From: Candidatus Latescibacterota bacterium
GTDB lineage: Bacteria > Latescibacterota > UBA2968 > UBA8231
NCBI GenBank assembly: GCA_965219385.1
Contig: CBDCNM010000002.1
Coordinates: 282,639 to 346,638 of the forward strand
Reading direction: 5' to 3'
DNA length: 64,000 nucleotides
The position numbers and the translations under genes were made by a program. The notes under the pieces were generated by a model. The model was not told where the DNA came from, ran no database searches, and saw only the letters and a list, made by a program, of their open reading frames with translations. Each line of letters opens with the position of its first letter. Position 1 is the first letter of the stretch. Positions 1 through 16,824 of the stretch are shown one piece after another.

Positions 1-2
1 GC

Positions 3-581
3 TGCGCCCTGGCCGGCGGCCGGACCCTCACCGCCAACCTCACCCACGCCGTGCGCCGCCGCGCTCCGGGCGCGGCCGACGACGAAGTCCTGCGCGAACT
101 CTTTGTGCAAATGGATTCACCGCTGGGCCAACGCGTCGATGTGCAACTCTTTGCCGATTTCAGCCGCAATCGGATTCTCATTGACGACGAGAGCCGCTTT
201 TTCGGCACGCGCTGGGCGTGGTCTCCGGACGGGTCCCACACCCTCGAGTTCGACGCCCAGTTCCAGGACGTCGATCGGCGCTTCGGCACTCTCGCCCTGC
301 CCTACACCAACTTCTACTACGCCCTGGCGGCCCACCGCGCCCCCGGCCTCTCCGCCGCCGTGCAGGTCCAACGCACCTCCGACGAATTGGAAACCGGTGC
401 CGATCCCTCCGGCGTGACCTGGTGGCGGGGCCTCAACCTCGGTGCTGATATCCGCGACGGCCACAGCCTCAATGTTTTCGCCGGCCAGCGCCGCTCGGGC
501 CTGGCCTGCACGGCCGGTATCTGCTACGAGGTTTTAGGGTTTGAGGGGGTCGAAGTCCGGCTGCTCAACCGCTTCTTCTGA
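3..581 (+). CDS. 3' part of a DUF6029-like outer-membrane beta-barrel protein (runs in from before the window)
   Basis: The frame is open from the window start. It shows amphipathic beta-strand patterning and ends in GQRRSGLACTAGICYEVLGFEGVEVRLLNRFF (CxxGxC, terminal Phe), which I recall as typical of DUF6029. Confidence 0.6.
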   Translation, partial: CALAGGRTLTANLTHAVRRRAPGAADDEVLRELFVQMDSPLGQRVDVQLFADFSRNRILIDDESRFFGTRWAWSPDGSHTLEFDAQFQDVDRRFGTLALPYTNFYYALAAHRAPGLSAAVQVQRTSDELETGADPSGVTWWRGLNLGADIRDGHSLNVFAGQRRSGLACTAGICYEVLGFEGVEVRLLNRFF

Positions 582-583
582 CC

Positions 584-1414
584 TCACCTGAGCAGCAGCA
601 GCTTGCGGATCACCACGTGCCCGCCGGCCCGCAGCCGGTAAAAGTACACCCCGCTGGTTACCTCTCGCCCCGTCTGGTCGCGGCCGTCCCAGCGCACCGC
701 GAACGCCCCGGCCGCGGCGGGCCCCTGCACGAGCACCGCCACCGGCTGGCCGAGCAGATTGTAGATTGCCAGCTCGACCTGGCTCGGCCGCGGCAGCGCG
801 AAGCGGATCACCGTATCGCTGTTGAAAGGATTGGGCGCGTTCTGCGCCAGGGACAGGCCCCCGGGCGCGGACGCCCGAGCAGACGCCTCCACCGCCGTTT
901 CGGTCACCTCTTCCGGGGGGGGCAGCGCAGCAAGGGCCAGCACCACCTCGTCGCGCAGCTCGTCCATGGGTACCAGGGAACTGGTCTTGTAGCGGAAGAG
1001 GCCCTCGTGGTCGATGATGGCAAAGGTCTGATTGGCTTGCCCATACGCGGTTGCCATCCGGCTGGCGTTCAGCAAGAGGGGCATCGTAACCCCCTTGTCC
1101 ACGCGCCAGCGGGTCCGCAACTGGGCCTCGGTGCCGTCCCACACCTCGGCCCCCAGCGCGATAAAGGGCTCGTCGGCAAATTCCTGCCAGATTTCTTCGA
1201 AGCTCTCGGCACGCGAGAGACAGGCCGGTCAGCTATGGCCGAAAAAGAAAATCAGCACGACTTGGCCGTCGAAGTCGCTCAGGGCCGCGGTGCCGCCGTC
1301 GAGCCGGTCCAGCAGGAAGGCGGGGGCCGCCTGTCCTACTTGCGGCGCCTGGGCGCCTAGGGCAGAAGCCCACAACACCGCCAAACTCGCCAAACGCAAC
1401 AAAGACTTGCTCAT
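584..1414 (-). CDS. Selenoprotein: signal peptide + AhpC/TSA/TlpA-like redoxin (UxxC) + T9SS type-A/FlgD-like CTD, 276 aa, Sec at TGA 1229-1231
   Basis: ATG at 1414 with AAGGAG upstream; MSKSLLRLASLAVLWASALGA signal; VGQAAPAFLL..LSDFDGQVVLIFFFGHS-TGA-PAC continues in frame with no stop into ORF 584..1144; C-terminus QNAPNPFN...SGVYFYRL...RKLLLLR. Confidence 0.85.
1202..1221 (-). promoter_or_regulatory. Bacterial SECIS-like stem-loop
   Basis: mRNA after UGA: CCGGCCU G-(U bulge)-CUCUCG-[CGUGC]-CGAGAG-C. The apical loop carries GU and starts 16 nt after the UGA. Confidence 0.7.
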
Positions 1415-1658
1415 GGTGAATCTCCTTAGTTTTGCCGCACAAACTTCTGCATGCCGTGGGCACAGCCCGGGAACCACCCCGGGGGATTGATGCGCTCGCC
1501 CGCGCTCCATTCGAATACCACAAACGGGTCGTCTGGACCAATCGCGCTCCGTTCTTGCCGTGCGGTGGTGCGGGCCATTTATTTTAACTTACTCCATGGA
1601 CGCCTCAGCCGCAACCTTCATCTCTTGAACCCCCAGGCTGAATGGAGCTATAAACGCT

Positions 1659-11723: not shown

Positions 11724-11871
11724 ATCTCATCTCCTTGACAGACATAAAAAAATAACGGAGACAAGGAGATAAGTCAAGGGGAAGACCTTGACAAATAAGG
11801 GGATAGCCTCCACCTTAAAAGGCGTTGGAGCACCGCTCACCAAGGTTTTGCAGGTTATTTTCTCGCGGTTC

Positions 11872-14800
11872 ATGAGAGAATCCGGTTGCCGTTCTAGTAT
11901 TGCTTTCTTGTTTGCCCTCCTGCTGATGGCTGGATCTGTAGTTGCAGAGGTCGGGATAGTCCAGACCAGTTCGGCCCATTTGCGGATTGTCTATGAGGCC
12001 GCAGGTAGCAATTGGCGGATGGATACCGGTCGCAGCGTCCTTGTAGGTCTTCCTTTGGAAGGAGAGGTGGGCCTGCAAATCATAGAAGCCCAGGTCGCAG
12101 AGCAACTCGAGGCGGAGGAGGTTTTAGATGAAGTGGGGGAGGATCTGAGGCTGGATGGGCCGGCGTTTTTGGGGCAACCTGGCTTTGTGCGCGACCAGCG
12201 GGTCGTCCAGCTGGTCTTTGCACCCCGGCGGGAAGCGGAGGGTCGGATTCTGGTATACAACAGAGTGGTGGTGGAACTGCATTTTACCGGGGGGCTGAGT
12301 TCGGGGGGAAGGTGGGGCCAGGATAAATGGGGCGAAGAATTTTACCGTCGTACCCTGCTCAACTACGAGCAGGCCAGGAAATGGCGTCGTTTCAGGTCCC
12401 GCTTTGCCCCCAAAGCCGGCTTGCAGTCAGCGGCTACGTCGTTATTGAAAGTGGTAGTTCCCAGACAGGGTATGTACCGAATCAGCGGTCGGGATTTGGA
12501 GGCGGCCGGCCTCTCCCTGGAAGAGGTGGATCCAGCCCGGCTGCGGGTGCTGTACGGCGGAGGGGGGATCCTGTCCTTGAGCCCGGCGCAGGGAGGAGTG
12601 GAACGGGAGGAGATCGCCAGTGTCATCGAAGACGGTGGGGATGGGCGTTTCGCAGTGGACGATTTTATCCTGTTTTACGGGGAGCCGGTGTCGCGTTGGG
12701 AATACAACAGGGAAGAGAGCCAGTACCAGTACCTGAATAATCCCTACACCGGAGACAACGTGTACTGGCTGGAGATCGGGGGCGAGGAGCCGGGCAAGCG
12801 GGCTGCTGTGCGCAGTGGAGCGCTGCAGGACTCCAAGCCACAGGTGCCGCAAAACTATCGGGTGAAGATCCATGCAGAATCTGAGGATTTTATCCGGACC
12901 CAGACTTTCGGTATCAAATCCGGTTATGAATGGTATTGGCATGAATTTCGTCGCAACGCCCGGAATTTCTCGAATGTGATACAGAATGCTATTGATACAC
13001 CAGTGAATATCCGGCTACATTTTTTCGCTGTAAAAACCGATGCTGGGAAATTTCCATTAAGCCAGTTCGATGTAAGGTGGAATGACAAATTAATCAACCA
13101 GATCTCCTTTGAAGGCGTTCCGAGATTTGCCACAGAACTGGAGGCTTCGGAAGGAGCACAAGAAGGAACGAACCAGTTGGGGTTATTCCACAATGGACAT
13201 GTCGCCCGTCTGGACTGGTACGAACTGGAGTACAGTCGTGAATTTGTGGCTAAGAGGGGGGAACTGATCTTCGGCTCGCCGGTCTTTGAAGGGATAGCCG
13301 AGTTTCGCCTGACCGGCTTTGCCGAGGAGCGTCCCCGGATTTTCGAGTTTTCCGAGGATCTGGTCGAGATCAAAGCCTTTGAATATGATGCCACGGCCGG
13401 CACCGTGGTCTTCCAGGACAGCCCCGGCGAGATACCGCGGCAATACCTGGTGGCCGGGCCGGCGCGGTGGAAACGGCCCGACCGCATCGAGTTGTATCAC
13501 CCCGGCGCCCTGCGGACCCTGGGCAATGGAGCGGATTATTTGATCGTTACCCATCAAGACTTTGCCTCGGCCGCCCAGCGTCTGGCAGCCTGGCGGGAAC
13601 AGGACGATCGCTTCGGGGCGCCCCTGCAAACTATGGTGGTGGATGTCCAGGATATCTACGACGAGTTTTCCGGCGGCTTGCTGGACCCGGCGGGCATCCG
13701 CAATTTTTTGGCCTACGCGGTAGAAAACTGGAGTCCCAGGCCTTTCTTCGTGGTGCTGTTCGGGGATGGTTCGTACGACTACAAAAACAACTCCGGGACC
13801 AGCCCGGGCAACTGGATCCCGCCCTATCAGGATGGCGACAGTACTTATGATGAATGGTACGTGCGCGTCATCGGCGAGGACGAACTGCCGGACCTGGCCA
13901 TCGGCCGCCTGACCGTACAGACGGCTCAAGAGGCGGACATCGTGGCCGACAAGCTCATTGACTACGATCGTCAGCCCCAGGTCGGCCCCTGGCAGAGCCG
14001 GGTCTTGCTGGTGGCCGACGATCTGAGCAACCCTAAGTATCGGGATCGCCTGGAGACTTTTTTCCTGAACGATGCGGAGTTTCTGGCTGCTACTTTTCTG
14101 CCACGAGGACTGGACCTGGTGAAACACTACATCGCGCAATTCCCTCTGGAGGGACGGGAAAAACCCCGGGCGCGGGATGAGTACATCCGCCTTTTTAACG
14201 AGGGGGCGCTGATTCTCACCTACATCGGCCACGGCAATCCCGAGGTGCTGGCGCACGAGCAGATGTTTGTGTTGTCGCGCGATTTTCCGGTCCTGGACAA
14301 TGGCCGGCGCCTCCACTTCATGTACACGGCGGCCAGCCAGACGGGCGTGTTCGACGATCCGGTGCGCAACTCCATGCCCGAGACCATGCTTAAAATGCCC
14401 AATGGCGGGGTGATCGGCATGATTTCGGCCACCCGGGTAGGGTATCACACCAGCAATATGGTTCTGGCCTACAGCTTTCACCGCCAGATGTACCGCTCCG
14501 GGCGCGAGCACGTGCCCGTGGGCACGGCGCTGATGGAAGCCAAGCAGCTGTCGCACTCTTCAGTCTCCATTAGGGGGAGGAAGAATATACGGCGCTACTC
14601 CCTCATCGGGGATCCGGCCACGCGTCTGGCCCGGCCGCGCTACCAGGCCGTGCTCCAGGTAGCCGATACCCTGCGGGCTCTCCAGGAGATCCATATCCAG
14701 GGTCAGGTGTTGCGGCCGGACGGGACGCCGGCGAACGATTACAACGGGCAGGCACGGGTGCAGGCCTTTGATTCGTCGGTGCTGAGCAAGCTGGACGGGC

Positions 14801-15642
14801 TGAACTACCAGCGGGTGGGCGGCCCACTGTTTCGCGGTATATTCCCCGTGGAGAACGGCCGCTTTACGGCCGCCTTCCGGGTGCCCAAGGATATCACCTA
14901 CCGGGGAACCAATGGGCGGGTGAGCGCCTATCTGTGGAGTGCGGACCAGCCCGCGGGCTTTGGCTCGGTCGAGGGGTTGCAGCTGGCCGGCACGGCCGAG
15001 GGGGTCGAGCCGGATCAGCAAGGGCCGGAAATCATCATTGGTTTTGCCGGCCGGGAACAGGTTGAGAATGGACAGTTTGTCCCCCAGCGACCTCTCCTGC
15101 GCGCCACCATCCGGGATGAGAGCGGGATCAACGTAACAGGGGAGACCGGCCATGAAATTGTTCTGACCGTTGATGAGACCATCTTCAAGGTGACGGACGG
15201 TTTTACCAGTGCTGGAGGGAACTATCGGGAGGGGCTGCTGGAATACCAGCTGCCGGCTCTGGAACCAGGGGCGCATGTGGTTGGTTTGAAAGCCTGGGAT
15301 ACCTTCAACAACTCGGCTCAGACCCAGGTGGAGATCCAGGTGGGTGAGGCCGGGGATGTGGCCCTGGCGGACGTGCTGTTTTACCCCAATCCCCTGCAGG
15401 GGGAAGAGGGACATTTTACCTACAACTTGTCGGCGCCGGCCCGTTCGGTCCAGATTCAGGTGTTTTCGTTGGGCGGCAAGCTGGTGGACGAGTTGGAAGG
15501 GACAACGCAGTTGGGCTACAATCAGGCGGCGTGGCAGCCGGCGGTGGCCCTGGCCAATGGGACCTATCTCTATCGCATACAGGTGCGCAGCGAGGAGGAT
15601 GGGGTCGCCGAACAGACTGCGGCCATACAGGTGATGAAATGA
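11872..15642 (+). CDS. porU: PorU-like T9SS sortase (peptidase C25 fold) with C-terminal CTD
   Basis: Signal peptide; ADYLIVTH, IYDEFSGG, LFGDGSYDYK, IGRL, YIGHG; C-terminal YPNP...NGTYLYRI. ATG 11872 preferred because the TTG at 11788 is part of a TTGACA box. Confidence 0.88.
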   Translation: MRESGCRSSIAFLFALLLMAGSVVAEVGIVQTSSAHLRIVYEAAGSNWRMDTGRSVLVGLPLEGEVGLQIIEAQVAEQLEAEEVLDEVGEDLRLDGPAFLGQPGFVRDQRVVQLVFAPRREAEGRILVYNRVVVELHFTGGLSSGGRWGQDKWGEEFYRRTLLNYEQARKWRRFRSRFAPKAGLQSAATSLLKVVVPRQGMYRISGRDLEAAGLSLEEVDPARLRVLYGGGGILSLSPAQGGVEREEIASVIEDGGDGRFAVDDFILFYGEPVSRWEYNREESQYQYLNNPYTGDNVYWLEIGGEEPGKRAAVRSGALQDSKPQVPQNYRVKIHAESEDFIRTQTFGIKSGYEWYWHEFRRNARNFSNVIQNAIDTPVNIRLHFFAVKTDAGKFPLSQFDVRWNDKLINQISFEGVPRFATELEASEGAQEGTNQLGLFHNGHVARLDWYELEYSREFVAKRGELIFGSPVFEGIAEFRLTGFAEERPRIFEFSEDLVEIKAFEYDATAGTVVFQDSPGEIPRQYLVAGPARWKRPDRIELYHPGALRTLGNGADYLIVTHQDFASAAQRLAAWREQDDRFGAPLQTMVVDVQDIYDEFSGGLLDPAGIRNFLAYAVENWSPRPFFVVLFGDGSYDYKNNSGTSPGNWIPPYQDGDSTYDEWYVRVIGEDELPDLAIGRLTVQTAQEADIVADKLIDYDRQPQVGPWQSRVLLVADDLSNPKYRDRLETFFLNDAEFLAATFLPRGLDLVKHYIAQFPLEGREKPRARDEYIRLFNEGALILTYIGHGNPEVLAHEQMFVLSRDFPVLDNGRRLHFMYTAASQTGVFDDPVRNSMPETMLKMPNGGVIGMISATRVGYHTSNMVLAYSFHRQMYRSGREHVPVGTALMEAKQLSHSSVSIRGRKNIRRYSLIGDPATRLARPRYQAVLQVADTLRALQEIHIQGQVLRPDGTPANDYNGQARVQAFDSSVLSKLDGLNYQRVGGPLFRGIFPVENGRFTAAFRVPKDITYRGTNGRVSAYLWSADQPAGFGSVEGLQLAGTAEGVEPDQQGPEIIIGFAGREQVENGQFVPQRPLLRATIRDESGINVTGETGHEIVLTVDETIFKVTDGFTSAGGNYREGLLEYQLPALEPGAHVVGLKAWDTFNNSAQTQVEIQVGEAGDVALADVLFYPNPLQGEEGHFTYNLSAPARSVQIQVFSLGGKLVDELEGTTQLGYNQAAWQPAVALANGTYLYRIQVRSEEDGVAEQTAAIQVMK

Positions 15643-15771: not shown

Positions 15772-16824
15772 ATGAAAAAGCTTTACTCTCTTTTACTGGC
15801 GGGAGTTTGTATCTGGGGCAGCGTCCAACAGGCCTTGGCCACTCCCGAAAGCCAGGCCGCAGTGTTGTTCTTGCTGGTCGAACCCGGCGCCCGGGCCATC
15901 GCCATGGGCGAGTCCTATGTGGCCATCTCGGATGATGCCACCGCAAGCTATTTCAACCCCGCGGCCCTGTCGGGACAGACCAAGAAGGCCCTCAATTTCA
16001 CCCACAGCAAGTGGCTCCCCGAACTGGCCACTGACATGTCCTACGAGTTTCTGGCTTATTCGCAGCCGGTGGAAGGATGGGGAAATATCGGACTCAATAT
16101 CGCTTTGCTGGACTTGGGGGCTCAGGTGCACACCGGCGAACGAGGCGAAAACCTGGGGGATTTCAGCAGCTATGATGTGGCTGTATCAGCGGCCTACGGT
16201 TCGGAAATCGCGGCCAATATGTCGGCTGGAATCGGGCTGAAGTTTATCCGCAGCAGTTTATCTCCCACCTTTGGCGCAGGTGAAGAACGGGGCAAGGGTG
16301 TGGGCAACAGCTTTGCCACGGACCTGGGCTTTTTGTGGCGGCTTTCACCCAGCCTGACCTTTGGTTCCGCGCTGCGCAATCTGGGCCCCAAGATCGCCTA
16401 TATCGACGTCAGCCAAGCAGACCCCCTGCCCCAGCACATTGTCGCCGGTTTGGCCTATAAAATGATGGACACTGAATTCAACGATGTACTGATTTCCGTG
16501 GATGTGTACAAGCCCCTGATTGCCGATGGCTCGTTCGCCGGCAACCTGGTCAAGGCCTGGACCGACGAGTCGCTCGGGAACGAGTTCAAGGAAATGGATC
16601 TGCACGTCGGCGGCGAGTACAAGTACGGTCTGTCGACCCGCCAGGACGAATCTTTTTTTGCCATGCGTGGTGGTTATTCGCTGGATAACGACGGCGAACT
16701 GAAGGTATGGACGGTTGGCGTAGGACTGAAGTACAATATGTTTCAGGTAGATGTGGCCTACATCATCGGTGATGGAACCCCTATCAACAACAATACGCGT
16801 TTCTCCCTGAATCTGACATTCTGA
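15772..16824 (+). CDS. porV: PorV-family outer-membrane shuttle beta-barrel
   Basis: FLLVEPGARAIAMGE, A.YFNPA.L, KWLPEL, NLGPKIAY, C-terminal RFSLNLTF; directly after porU. Confidence 0.88.
   Translation: MKKLYSLLLAGVCIWGSVQQALATPESQAAVLFLLVEPGARAIAMGESYVAISDDATASYFNPAALSGQTKKALNFTHSKWLPELATDMSYEFLAYSQPVEGWGNIGLNIALLDLGAQVHTGERGENLGDFSSYDVAVSAAYGSEIAANMSAGIGLKFIRSSLSPTFGAGEERGKGVGNSFATDLGFLWRLSPSLTFGSALRNLGPKIAYIDVSQADPLPQHIVAGLAYKMMDTEFNDVLISVDVYKPLIADGSFAGNLVKAWTDESLGNEFKEMDLHVGGEYKYGLSTRQDESFFAMRGGYSLDNDGELKVWTVGVGLKYNMFQVDVAYIIGDGTPINNNTRFSLNLTF

Follow-up and report, generated by a model that had tools for sequence, protein, structure and literature searches.

Thiol relays from DsbD/CcdA to ResA/TlpA proteins carry electrons across the inner membrane. 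The outer membrane is crossed by MtrAB porin-cytochrome conduits (PMC7198977). At the level of single enzymes, thioredoxin-fold proteins with a UxxC active site are known selenoproteins: Table 1 of a 2026 review catalogues a PF00578 'Prx-like thiol:disulfide oxidoreductase' and a PF08534 'Redoxin family protein' as such (PMC13188914), and Prx-like 1/3 selenoproteins are given in a second work (PMC2398784). The terms 'secret', 'T9SS' and 'periplasm' do not occur in the main text of the review. A thioredoxin outside the cell is described in HBP35 of Porphyromonas gingivalis, a Cys-containing protein with a T9SS tail that is surface-anchored and has thioredoxin activity (PMC2907840; PMC7712824; PMC11681262), and the portions of PMC2907840 and PMC7712824 considered here contain no recharging route for it. 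Extracellular selenoproteins are represented by SaoB and SaoC of Firmicutes (bioRxiv 10.1101/2022.07.06.499078). The T9SS itself may occur in further FCB phyla (PMC11285876).

We analysed a stretch of 64,000 nucleotides from a Candidatus Latescibacterota genome (referred to as the window; contig CBDCNM010000002.1, positions 282,639 to 346,638), which contains a predicted selenoprotein gene with a T9SS-type tail. Its redoxin family shares with the catalogued UxxC selenoproteins the Pfam domains, the UxxC motif, an in-frame UGA with a 3' hairpin and the existence of Cys orthologues, and differs from them by a G-x-x-U-x-x-C signature, a signal peptide and swappable surface-sorting tails. No NCBIfam selenoprotein model reached its cut-off for this family, and the Omp28 model NF033782 matched weakly in 2 of 32 members (best E 6.9e-4), a level at which membership is not assigned. 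With HBP35, the selenoprotein has in common a thioredoxin motif followed by a T9SS C-terminal domain, whereas HBP35 carries Cys, belongs to another thioredoxin subfamily and, unlike the selenoprotein, does not come from a host in which GldL, GldM and GldN went undetected. SaoB and SaoC likewise face the extracellular milieu, but are, in the preprint sections considered, monoderm lipoprotein and ABC-transport components with CU motifs and involve neither a thioredoxin-T9SS fusion nor an outer-membrane barrel. The relay proposed below resembles DsbD/CcdA and MtrAB in placing a membrane protein between redox partners on both sides, while its proposed carrier is a haem-free Cys pair on a loop of an outer-membrane barrel. 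For this predicted barrel, DUF6029, a role as polysaccharide porin is suggested in the one work found (PMC9603273), and the parts of that paper considered here mention neither its constant redoxin neighbours nor its invariant CxxGxC loop. The main text of a study of sponge Latescibacterota (PMC12993501) contains neither 'selen' nor 'secretion'.

The sequence-only reading that we followed up knew of no surface-exported bacterial selenoprotein of this architecture, while taking UxxC AhpC/TSA-like selenoproteins as known; the latter is borne out by the catalogues cited above, and the former holds for the combination and not for its parts, as extracellular SaoB/SaoC and T9SS-anchored HBP35 have been described. 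Only the combination of Sec and a T9SS tail is new. The literature searched, which lay mostly outside subscription journals and supplements, yielded no protein with Sec and a T9SS tail, no link between DUF6029 and a redoxin and no thiol relay through an outer-membrane barrel, and supplementary tables of predicted selenoproteins could contain the redoxin family. A categorical novelty could lie in the three-gene module to which the selenoprotein gene belongs.

A redoxin gene with an in-frame TGA

It had been proposed that two entries of the open reading frame list, 1229..1510 and 584..1144, are one frame interrupted by a TGA at the first Cys position of a thioredoxin-fold CxxC. Both entries lie in the same minus-strand frame, and the PF00578 match spans the U-P-A-C motif. 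The gene has the following features.

584..1414, minus strand: predicted selenoprotein gene of 276 codons, with signal peptide, UxxC thioredoxin-fold domain, linker and T9SS type A/FlgD-like tail
1422..1427, minus strand: Shine-Dalgarno-like AAGGAG, read from the sequence, 7 nt ahead of the ATG at 1414
1352..1414, minus strand: predicted Sec-pathway (SPI) signal peptide, residues 1-21, lacking a lipobox Cys, assigned by eye; N-termini of homologues are alike
992..1339, minus strand: thioredoxin-fold redoxin domain, ResA/TlpA-like (PF00578 AhpC-TSA, residues 26-141, E 1.7e-13)
1229..1231, minus strand: in-frame TGA, codon 62, putative selenocysteine at the first position of U-P-A-C (U62, C65); 31 TGA and 1 TGC of 32
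1202..1221, minus strand: SECIS-like hairpin with a 6-bp stem (1219-1214/1208-1203), a 5-nt loop CGUGC and a bulged U at 1220
587..835, minus strand: C-terminal sorting domain, T9SS type A/FlgD-like, PNPFN ... SGVYFYRL ... RKLLLLR (TIGR04183, 38.3 bits, cut-off 23; PF13860 FlgD_ig)

The frame runs from an ATG at 1414-1412 to a TGA stop at 586-584 and contains a single internal TGA (1231-1229) in the context FFFGHS-U-PAC; a Pro/Glu/Ala linker separates the redoxin domain from the tail. Among solved structures, the nearest in sequence belong to ResA/TlpA/DsbE proteins of the periplasm or membrane. This likeness is one of fold only, with the ResA equivalog NF002854 scoring 31.2 bits against a cut-off of 170, and no NCBIfam model exceeded its cut-off for the redoxin family or the neighbouring barrel. 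A single-sequence AlphaFold model of the selenoprotein was too low in confidence for use (pLDDT 37.5). As anticipated, standard annotation splits the gene: among the best ca. 76 database matches, most of them C-terminal pieces, the records of the gene itself and of most of its ca. 75 closest relatives are fragments that start 3' of the TGA and are named for the tail alone. The gene split by callers at the TGA is one conserved gene. The host genome has 91 tail-bearing frames, five of them with an upstream TGA near a Cys, and one of these five, the gene at 584..1414, combines a redox motif with a credible upstream frame.

The host genome (5.8 Mb, 94% complete) encodes adjoining selA and selB genes, a selD gene which itself carries an in-frame TGA and a tRNA-Sec(UCA), with selA, selB and selD all over cut-off; the selenocysteine machinery that the sequence-only reading had called for is thus present. 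In loci taken from 40 relatives, the codon-62 column held TGA at 31 of 32 sites and TGC at the remaining one, never a Trp or Arg codon or any other, and one additional match stopped short of the column. Homologues sharing the TGA column are 25-67% identical. A profile search of the phylum matched 122 of 168 genomes at E<=1e-15. Of its 255 matches 150 were listed, 146 with one TGA and four with none, the position of the column being confirmed in the fetched loci only, where a motif-based count gave 46 TGA and one TGC of 47. Orthologues with Cys (signal peptide, GxxCxxC and tail) are common outside the phylum, with a recognisable tail in 59 of the best 150 representatives and named members in Calditrichota and Marinimicrobia. 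Among 50 of the 52 genomes reached via DUF6029 loci, selA was over cut-off in all 10 with a TGA form and in 1 of 40 with a Cys form (Fisher p 1e-9, a value overstated by the non-independence of kin). A quick tree of few columns, which served solely for this minimum count, forces at least six switches between Sec and Cys. Trp reassignment is disfavoured because TGA alternates with Cys, never with Trp, and tracks selA; TGA is also an ordinary stop in the host genome, as at the end of the selenoprotein gene. The concern that the TGA might be a sequencing error is met by independent RNA-library contigs (three samples, one study), which span it without a listed difference. Contigs from DNA runs match the TGA as well, but on one side they bridge it with fewer than 31 letters, and the source sample may be among them; they were not counted. 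Where a run containing the stretch names a habitat, it is a sponge metatranscriptome. Judged from these comparisons of sequence, we regard the gene as real and its selenocysteine as near-certain.

The bulged-U stem-loop with a GU-containing loop that had been noted downstream of the TGA is present as described, with G as the second loop nucleotide, followed by U, and a loop beginning at nt 16 past the UGA (15 nt between). The bSECIS consensus places the apical loop 16-37 nt from the UGA (PMC13188914); the hairpin fits this consensus apart from its borderline spacing, so that the claimed SECIS match stands for loop and stem and, in spacing, falls at or just under the lower edge. In most relatives of family f1 the spacing is 16. 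The folding energy of the region 1190-1228 is -8.4 kcal/mol, and dinucleotide shuffles folded as well as the native single sequence (z +0.2 to +1.1). Because this measure alone was not significant, we replaced it with covariation and recoding controls. Covariation had been suggested as a check and was found: across 31 distinct homologues, the same register was paired in 67.7% of cells with two-sided changes at five of six pairs, a score that 0 of 500 shuffles reached and that all slid controls fell below. The hairpin of the selenoprotein gene itself carries a G-C to U-A compensatory change. In more distant families, the register has moved by a few bases. Synonymous recoding of the gene's own codons gave p values of 0.023 for stem length and 0.037 for energy, and the hairpin region was stabler than its recodings in 43 of 47 family members (p<=0.1 in 30). 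The same comparison found the natural region stabler in 10 of 10 TGA forms, 7 of them at p<=0.1; among Cys forms of other phyla this held for 28 of 48, with 8 at p<=0.1.

Several further loci were seen along the way. In one genome (G026), tandem paralogues carry Cys in one copy and Sec in the other (L022:241 and L022:1612); the Cys copy retains the hairpin sequence, which suggests, at the level of sequence, a recent change from Sec to Cys. Sec forms nested within lipoprotein orthologues of the Bacteroidota type occur at L212, L172 and L177, with selA in all three genomes, one of which (L212) is labelled Bacteroidales. Three further thioredoxin-like TGA candidates were found in the host genome (G000). 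Two are likely selenoproteins with a strong 3' hairpin, namely a lipoprotein-like redoxin with T-U-S-F-C (C2:480728, minus strand) and a ResA-like protein with W-A-S-W-U-G-C (C2:3407715, minus strand), and the third (C2:179865) was rejected, its TGA being an upstream stop. Within the window, sugar-isomerase/GguC-like genes upstream (1659-2926) appear frameshifted or truncated.

Predicted export route and sorting tails

The C-terminal domain had been read as routing the selenoenzyme to the cell surface or medium through a T9SS-like machinery. The host genome contains SprA and PorU, together with seven PorV-family genes (of 14 matches) and 63 sorting tails that score over cut-off. Two of the corresponding genes lie in the window.

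11788..15642, plus strand: PorU-type T9SS sortase gene (NF033707, 656 bits, cut-off 420)
15856..16821, plus strand: PorV-family gene beside porU (NF033709, 242.6 bits, cut-off 90)

GldL, GldM and GldN gave no match in the 94%-complete host genome, and the control genomes were silent for them as well. Because these three are unmatched, the export machine of the host is probably not a canonical T9SS. The host, with SprA, PorV, PorU and 63 tails and no GldL/M/N match, possibly has a motor-less T9SS. What stands of the proposed routing is the tail and the set of SprA, PorV and PorU; GldL, GldM and GldN went undetected, and a T9SS-like route is plausible, with secretion of the enzyme as a prediction. 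The layout of the protein is that of type A cargo, namely a signal peptide (assigned by eye) and a TIGR04183 domain over cut-off.

Within the phylum, the redoxin domain occurs with three swappable endings: the T9SS/FlgD tail, a dockerin/EF-hand-like DFDG repeat, often after Ig domains, and a short W-G/S-x-x-K ending. The extra PorV paralogues may serve the dockerin-like and W-G-x-x-K endings, which would then act as additional sorting signals. The redoxin orthologues of Bacteroidota carry a lipobox with acidic residues after the lipidated Cys, an arrangement resembling a published surface-export signal (PMC5080379). By a crude pattern, a lipobox or tail was present in 42 of 51 redoxin partners, compared with no tails and five non-acidic lipobox-like matches in 56 TlpA proteins. 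Because four different signals occur on one domain, we consider the surface location of the redoxin, as predicted from these signals, likely. At L014:1498-3354 and L047, a PF00144 serine-hydrolase (beta-lactamase-like) domain and a T9SS tail are joined to a Sec redoxin.

The neighbouring barrel and TlpA genes

The selenoprotein gene is, by gene neighbourhood, the third member of a conserved TlpA-DUF6029-redoxin module, a context that the sequence-only reading had missed. Its partners are located as follows.

1..581, plus strand: 3' part of the gene for a DUF6029 outer-membrane barrel (507 aa; whole gene at G000:C2:281696-283219; PF19494 E 2.8e-13)
507..524, plus strand: C-x-x-G-x-C hairpin of the barrel, invariant, in the last predicted extracellular loop
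G000:C2:281147-281638, outside the window, minus strand: TlpA-like gene with WATWCKPC and a signal peptide, divergent from and to the left of the barrel gene

The barrel gene is convergent with the selenoprotein gene and ends 2 nt from its stop, and its PF19494 match scores 49.8 bits against a gathering cut-off of 27 (Atlas 0.97). To the left of tlpA, the region G000:C2:270000-281000 is dense in transposase remnants. Counted over the 150 matches listed, the distance from a barrel to a listed Sec gene is at most 4 kb in 48 of 52 genomes of family f1, 20 of 20 of family f4 and 0 of 29 of family f2, with weak nearby matches existing in L118 and L119; the family-f2 barrel keeps TlpA as its neighbour. 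Gene order and orientation of the module differ among genomes. Presence and absence in family f1 (both genes in 51, a single one in 1+1, neither in 23) are confounded by adjacency and were set aside. We collected 57 DUF6029 loci from other lineages (mostly Bacteroidota, with Calditrichota, KSB1, Krumholzibacteriia and Latescibacterota), all drawn with one sequence pattern from named genomes and representing one DUF6029 subclade with non-independent kin. TlpA was adjacent in 56 of them and a redoxin in 51, the latter belonging to the same family in 48 and to a related W-x-x-C/U form in three; five of the six loci without a redoxin are at a contig edge. In G055, an Omp28-like protein with a T9SS tail occupies the redoxin slot beside TlpA-DUF6029. 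Versions of the operon with Cys exist in cultured marine Bacteroidota, namely Carboxylicivirga (C. marina is L164), Saccharicrinis and Labilibacter. Contigs from RNA libraries extend over the barrel and Sec genes and scarcely into the following 1 kb; they come from one study, are of a kind from which neither expression level nor strand can be read, and were not taken as evidence of transcription. A second DUF6029 operon was seen at L122:5273-9914 (G079), consisting of a redoxin lipoprotein, TlpA, a barrel and a large LVIVD-like/Ig protein; the latter ends in a W-U-P-V-C redoxin and a dockerin-like tail and is split at its TGA.

The CxxGxC motif is invariant in barrel alignments of 14, 75 and 38 sequences and was found in 59 of 60 barrels, the one miss being a frameshifted copy; in the alignment of 75 sequences, its Cys are among only 16 invariant columns. 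An AlphaFold model built from these 75 sequences (pLDDT 87.6) predicts ca. 24 strands without a plug and places the Cys hairpin in a long loop before the last strand, strand count and loop position being taken from DSSP and not from coordinates. In the usual barrel topology, a long loop at this position faces outward. The best structural matches of the model are the usher pores FimD and PapC (Z 18.6 and 17.8, 10-11% identity; best match with rmsd 4.9 over 357 aligned residues at 10% identity), a match of the modelled barrel in size, not in function. The loop disulfide could be purely structural.

Family f3 has Sec genes, and DUF6029 was found in 0 of its 3 genomes. In two f3 genomes, the Sec-redoxin genes precede a PF13557 barrel with a Cys-Cys end, after which comes a UxxC TlpA-like gene. 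Such a Cys-Cys-tailed PF13557 barrel followed by a TlpA-like gene with W-U-G-x-C is present at L082:10352-11844 (G030), L126:3183-4850 (G026), L218 and L231-L234. The tail is found in 6 of 6 complete close relatives of this barrel, some of them closely related to each other, and a clear redoxin neighbour in 6 of 7. About 30 distant PF13557 paralogues were without the Cys-Cys tail, four of them beside a UxxC gene. Two Cys-Cys barrels in tandem occur at L233, and on the metagenome contigs L240, L242, L250 and L251 a different UxxC gene (G-D-W-U-P-F/Y-C) stands beside tailless PF13557-like barrels.

A possible thiol relay and its alternatives

The best explanation of the locus, to which we give a probability of about 50%, would be a surface-anchored U-P-A-C reductase that is recharged via a thiol relay through TlpA and DUF6029. 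The enzyme would leave the cytoplasm by the Sec pathway, pass through SprA/PorV and be attached by PorU through its C-terminal tail. Electrons would move from DsbD/CcdA, which is encoded in the host genome, to the periplasmic TlpA with its CxxC. TlpA could then reduce the CxxGxC loop of the barrel through the open lumen, and the loop, swinging between lumen and surface, would pass the electrons on to the UxxC selenoenzyme. Speculatively, the enzyme may act on disulfides or oxidised residues, whether these belong to surface proteins or to the surroundings. Selenium at an active site brings reactivity and resistance to over-oxidation. Here it might, again speculatively, keep an exposed active site reactive and protected from over-oxidation. 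If the selenoenzyme is at the surface, the odds for the relay itself are about even.

Other readings of the locus differ in how far they depart from this scheme. Most radically, the TGA could truly end translation, in a pseudogene or a split gene, or it could be a reassigned Trp codon or an error of sequencing. Such a reading could draw on a lone hairpin that equals its shuffles and on a spacing at the edge of the consensus, but the same-column TGA in 31 of 32 homologues of 25-67% identity, the alternation with Cys and never Trp, the tracking of selA and the at least six Sec/Cys switches on the quick tree speak against it, as does the unchanged TGA in RNA-library contigs from three samples of one study. 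Error and Trp recoding were rejected in view of the Cys alternation, the selA tracking and the RNA contigs, and the normal use of TGA as a stop in this genome further opposes reassignment; on these comparisons, the reading as a whole is effectively refuted. A selenoprotein that stays in the periplasm is quite unlikely in our view. Its FlgD-like tail would then be an Ig domain for binding or anchoring, in a lineage without a Gld motor, and the protein a ResA/TlpA-like envelope helper, which would agree with the unmatched GldL/M/N, with the periplasmic or membrane ResA/TlpA/DsbE proteins as closest solved relatives and with the published wording that a T9SS beyond Bacteroidota 'may also be present' (PMC11285876). 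Against this stand the SprA, PorV and PorU genes and the 63 tailed proteins of the genome, the acidic surface-type lipoprotein signal of the Bacteroidota orthologues and, in the sources as far as considered here, the surface anchoring of the thioredoxin HBP35, which ends in a tail of this kind (PMC2907840; PMC7712824).

A surface selenoenzyme that works with no relay is unlikely, though to be taken seriously. DUF6029 would then serve for import, or as the pore through which the redoxin itself is exported; its loop disulfide would be structural or regulatory, and redoxin and TlpA would be co-regulated helpers that, for instance, reduce disulfide or selenium compounds outside the cell ahead of their uptake or maintain the pore. 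The usher-sized, unplugged barrel model would be wide enough for solutes or small proteins, HHpred links DUF6029 to Wzi-like porins in the published text considered (PMC9603273), and in family f2 the barrel and the Sec gene are not linked. What favours a relay instead is that nearly every locus has two redoxins of opposite predicted topology beside the barrel, that the barrel Cys are among so few invariant columns (16 in 75 sequences) and that an unrelated barrel in the same slot has gained a dicysteine tail absent from its distant paralogues; an export pore in particular is disfavoured by the redoxin partners having export signals of their own. We tentatively set aside the idea that DUF6029 mainly serves polysaccharide export at these loci, in an analysis whose scope did not extend to OPX genes.

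Beyond the single locus, TlpA, DUF6029 and a surface redoxin may together form a widespread, undescribed disulfide electron conduit across the outer membranes of FCB bacteria, a counterpart to DsbD. The Cys hairpin on a barrel of ca. 24 strands would carry reducing equivalents from the periplasm to a surface thioredoxin, and this thioredoxin would use Sec in cells able to make it. We put this forward tentatively, at somewhat less than even odds. The conduit would have evolved on two or more occasions, since a small barrel that is unrelated and carries a Cys-Cys tail would play the same part. The analysis adds a phylum-wide family of predicted surface selenoenzymes which databases hold as truncated 'T9SS sorting domain proteins', and it flags a selA-bearing genome labelled Bacteroidales with Sec in the redoxin family (L212). 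It further points to a possible answer to how thioredoxins outside the outer membrane, such as HBP35, are re-reduced. The uncharacterised DUF6029 would gain a specific, testable role, and the Cys versions of the operon in cultured marine Bacteroidota would allow this role to be tested directly.
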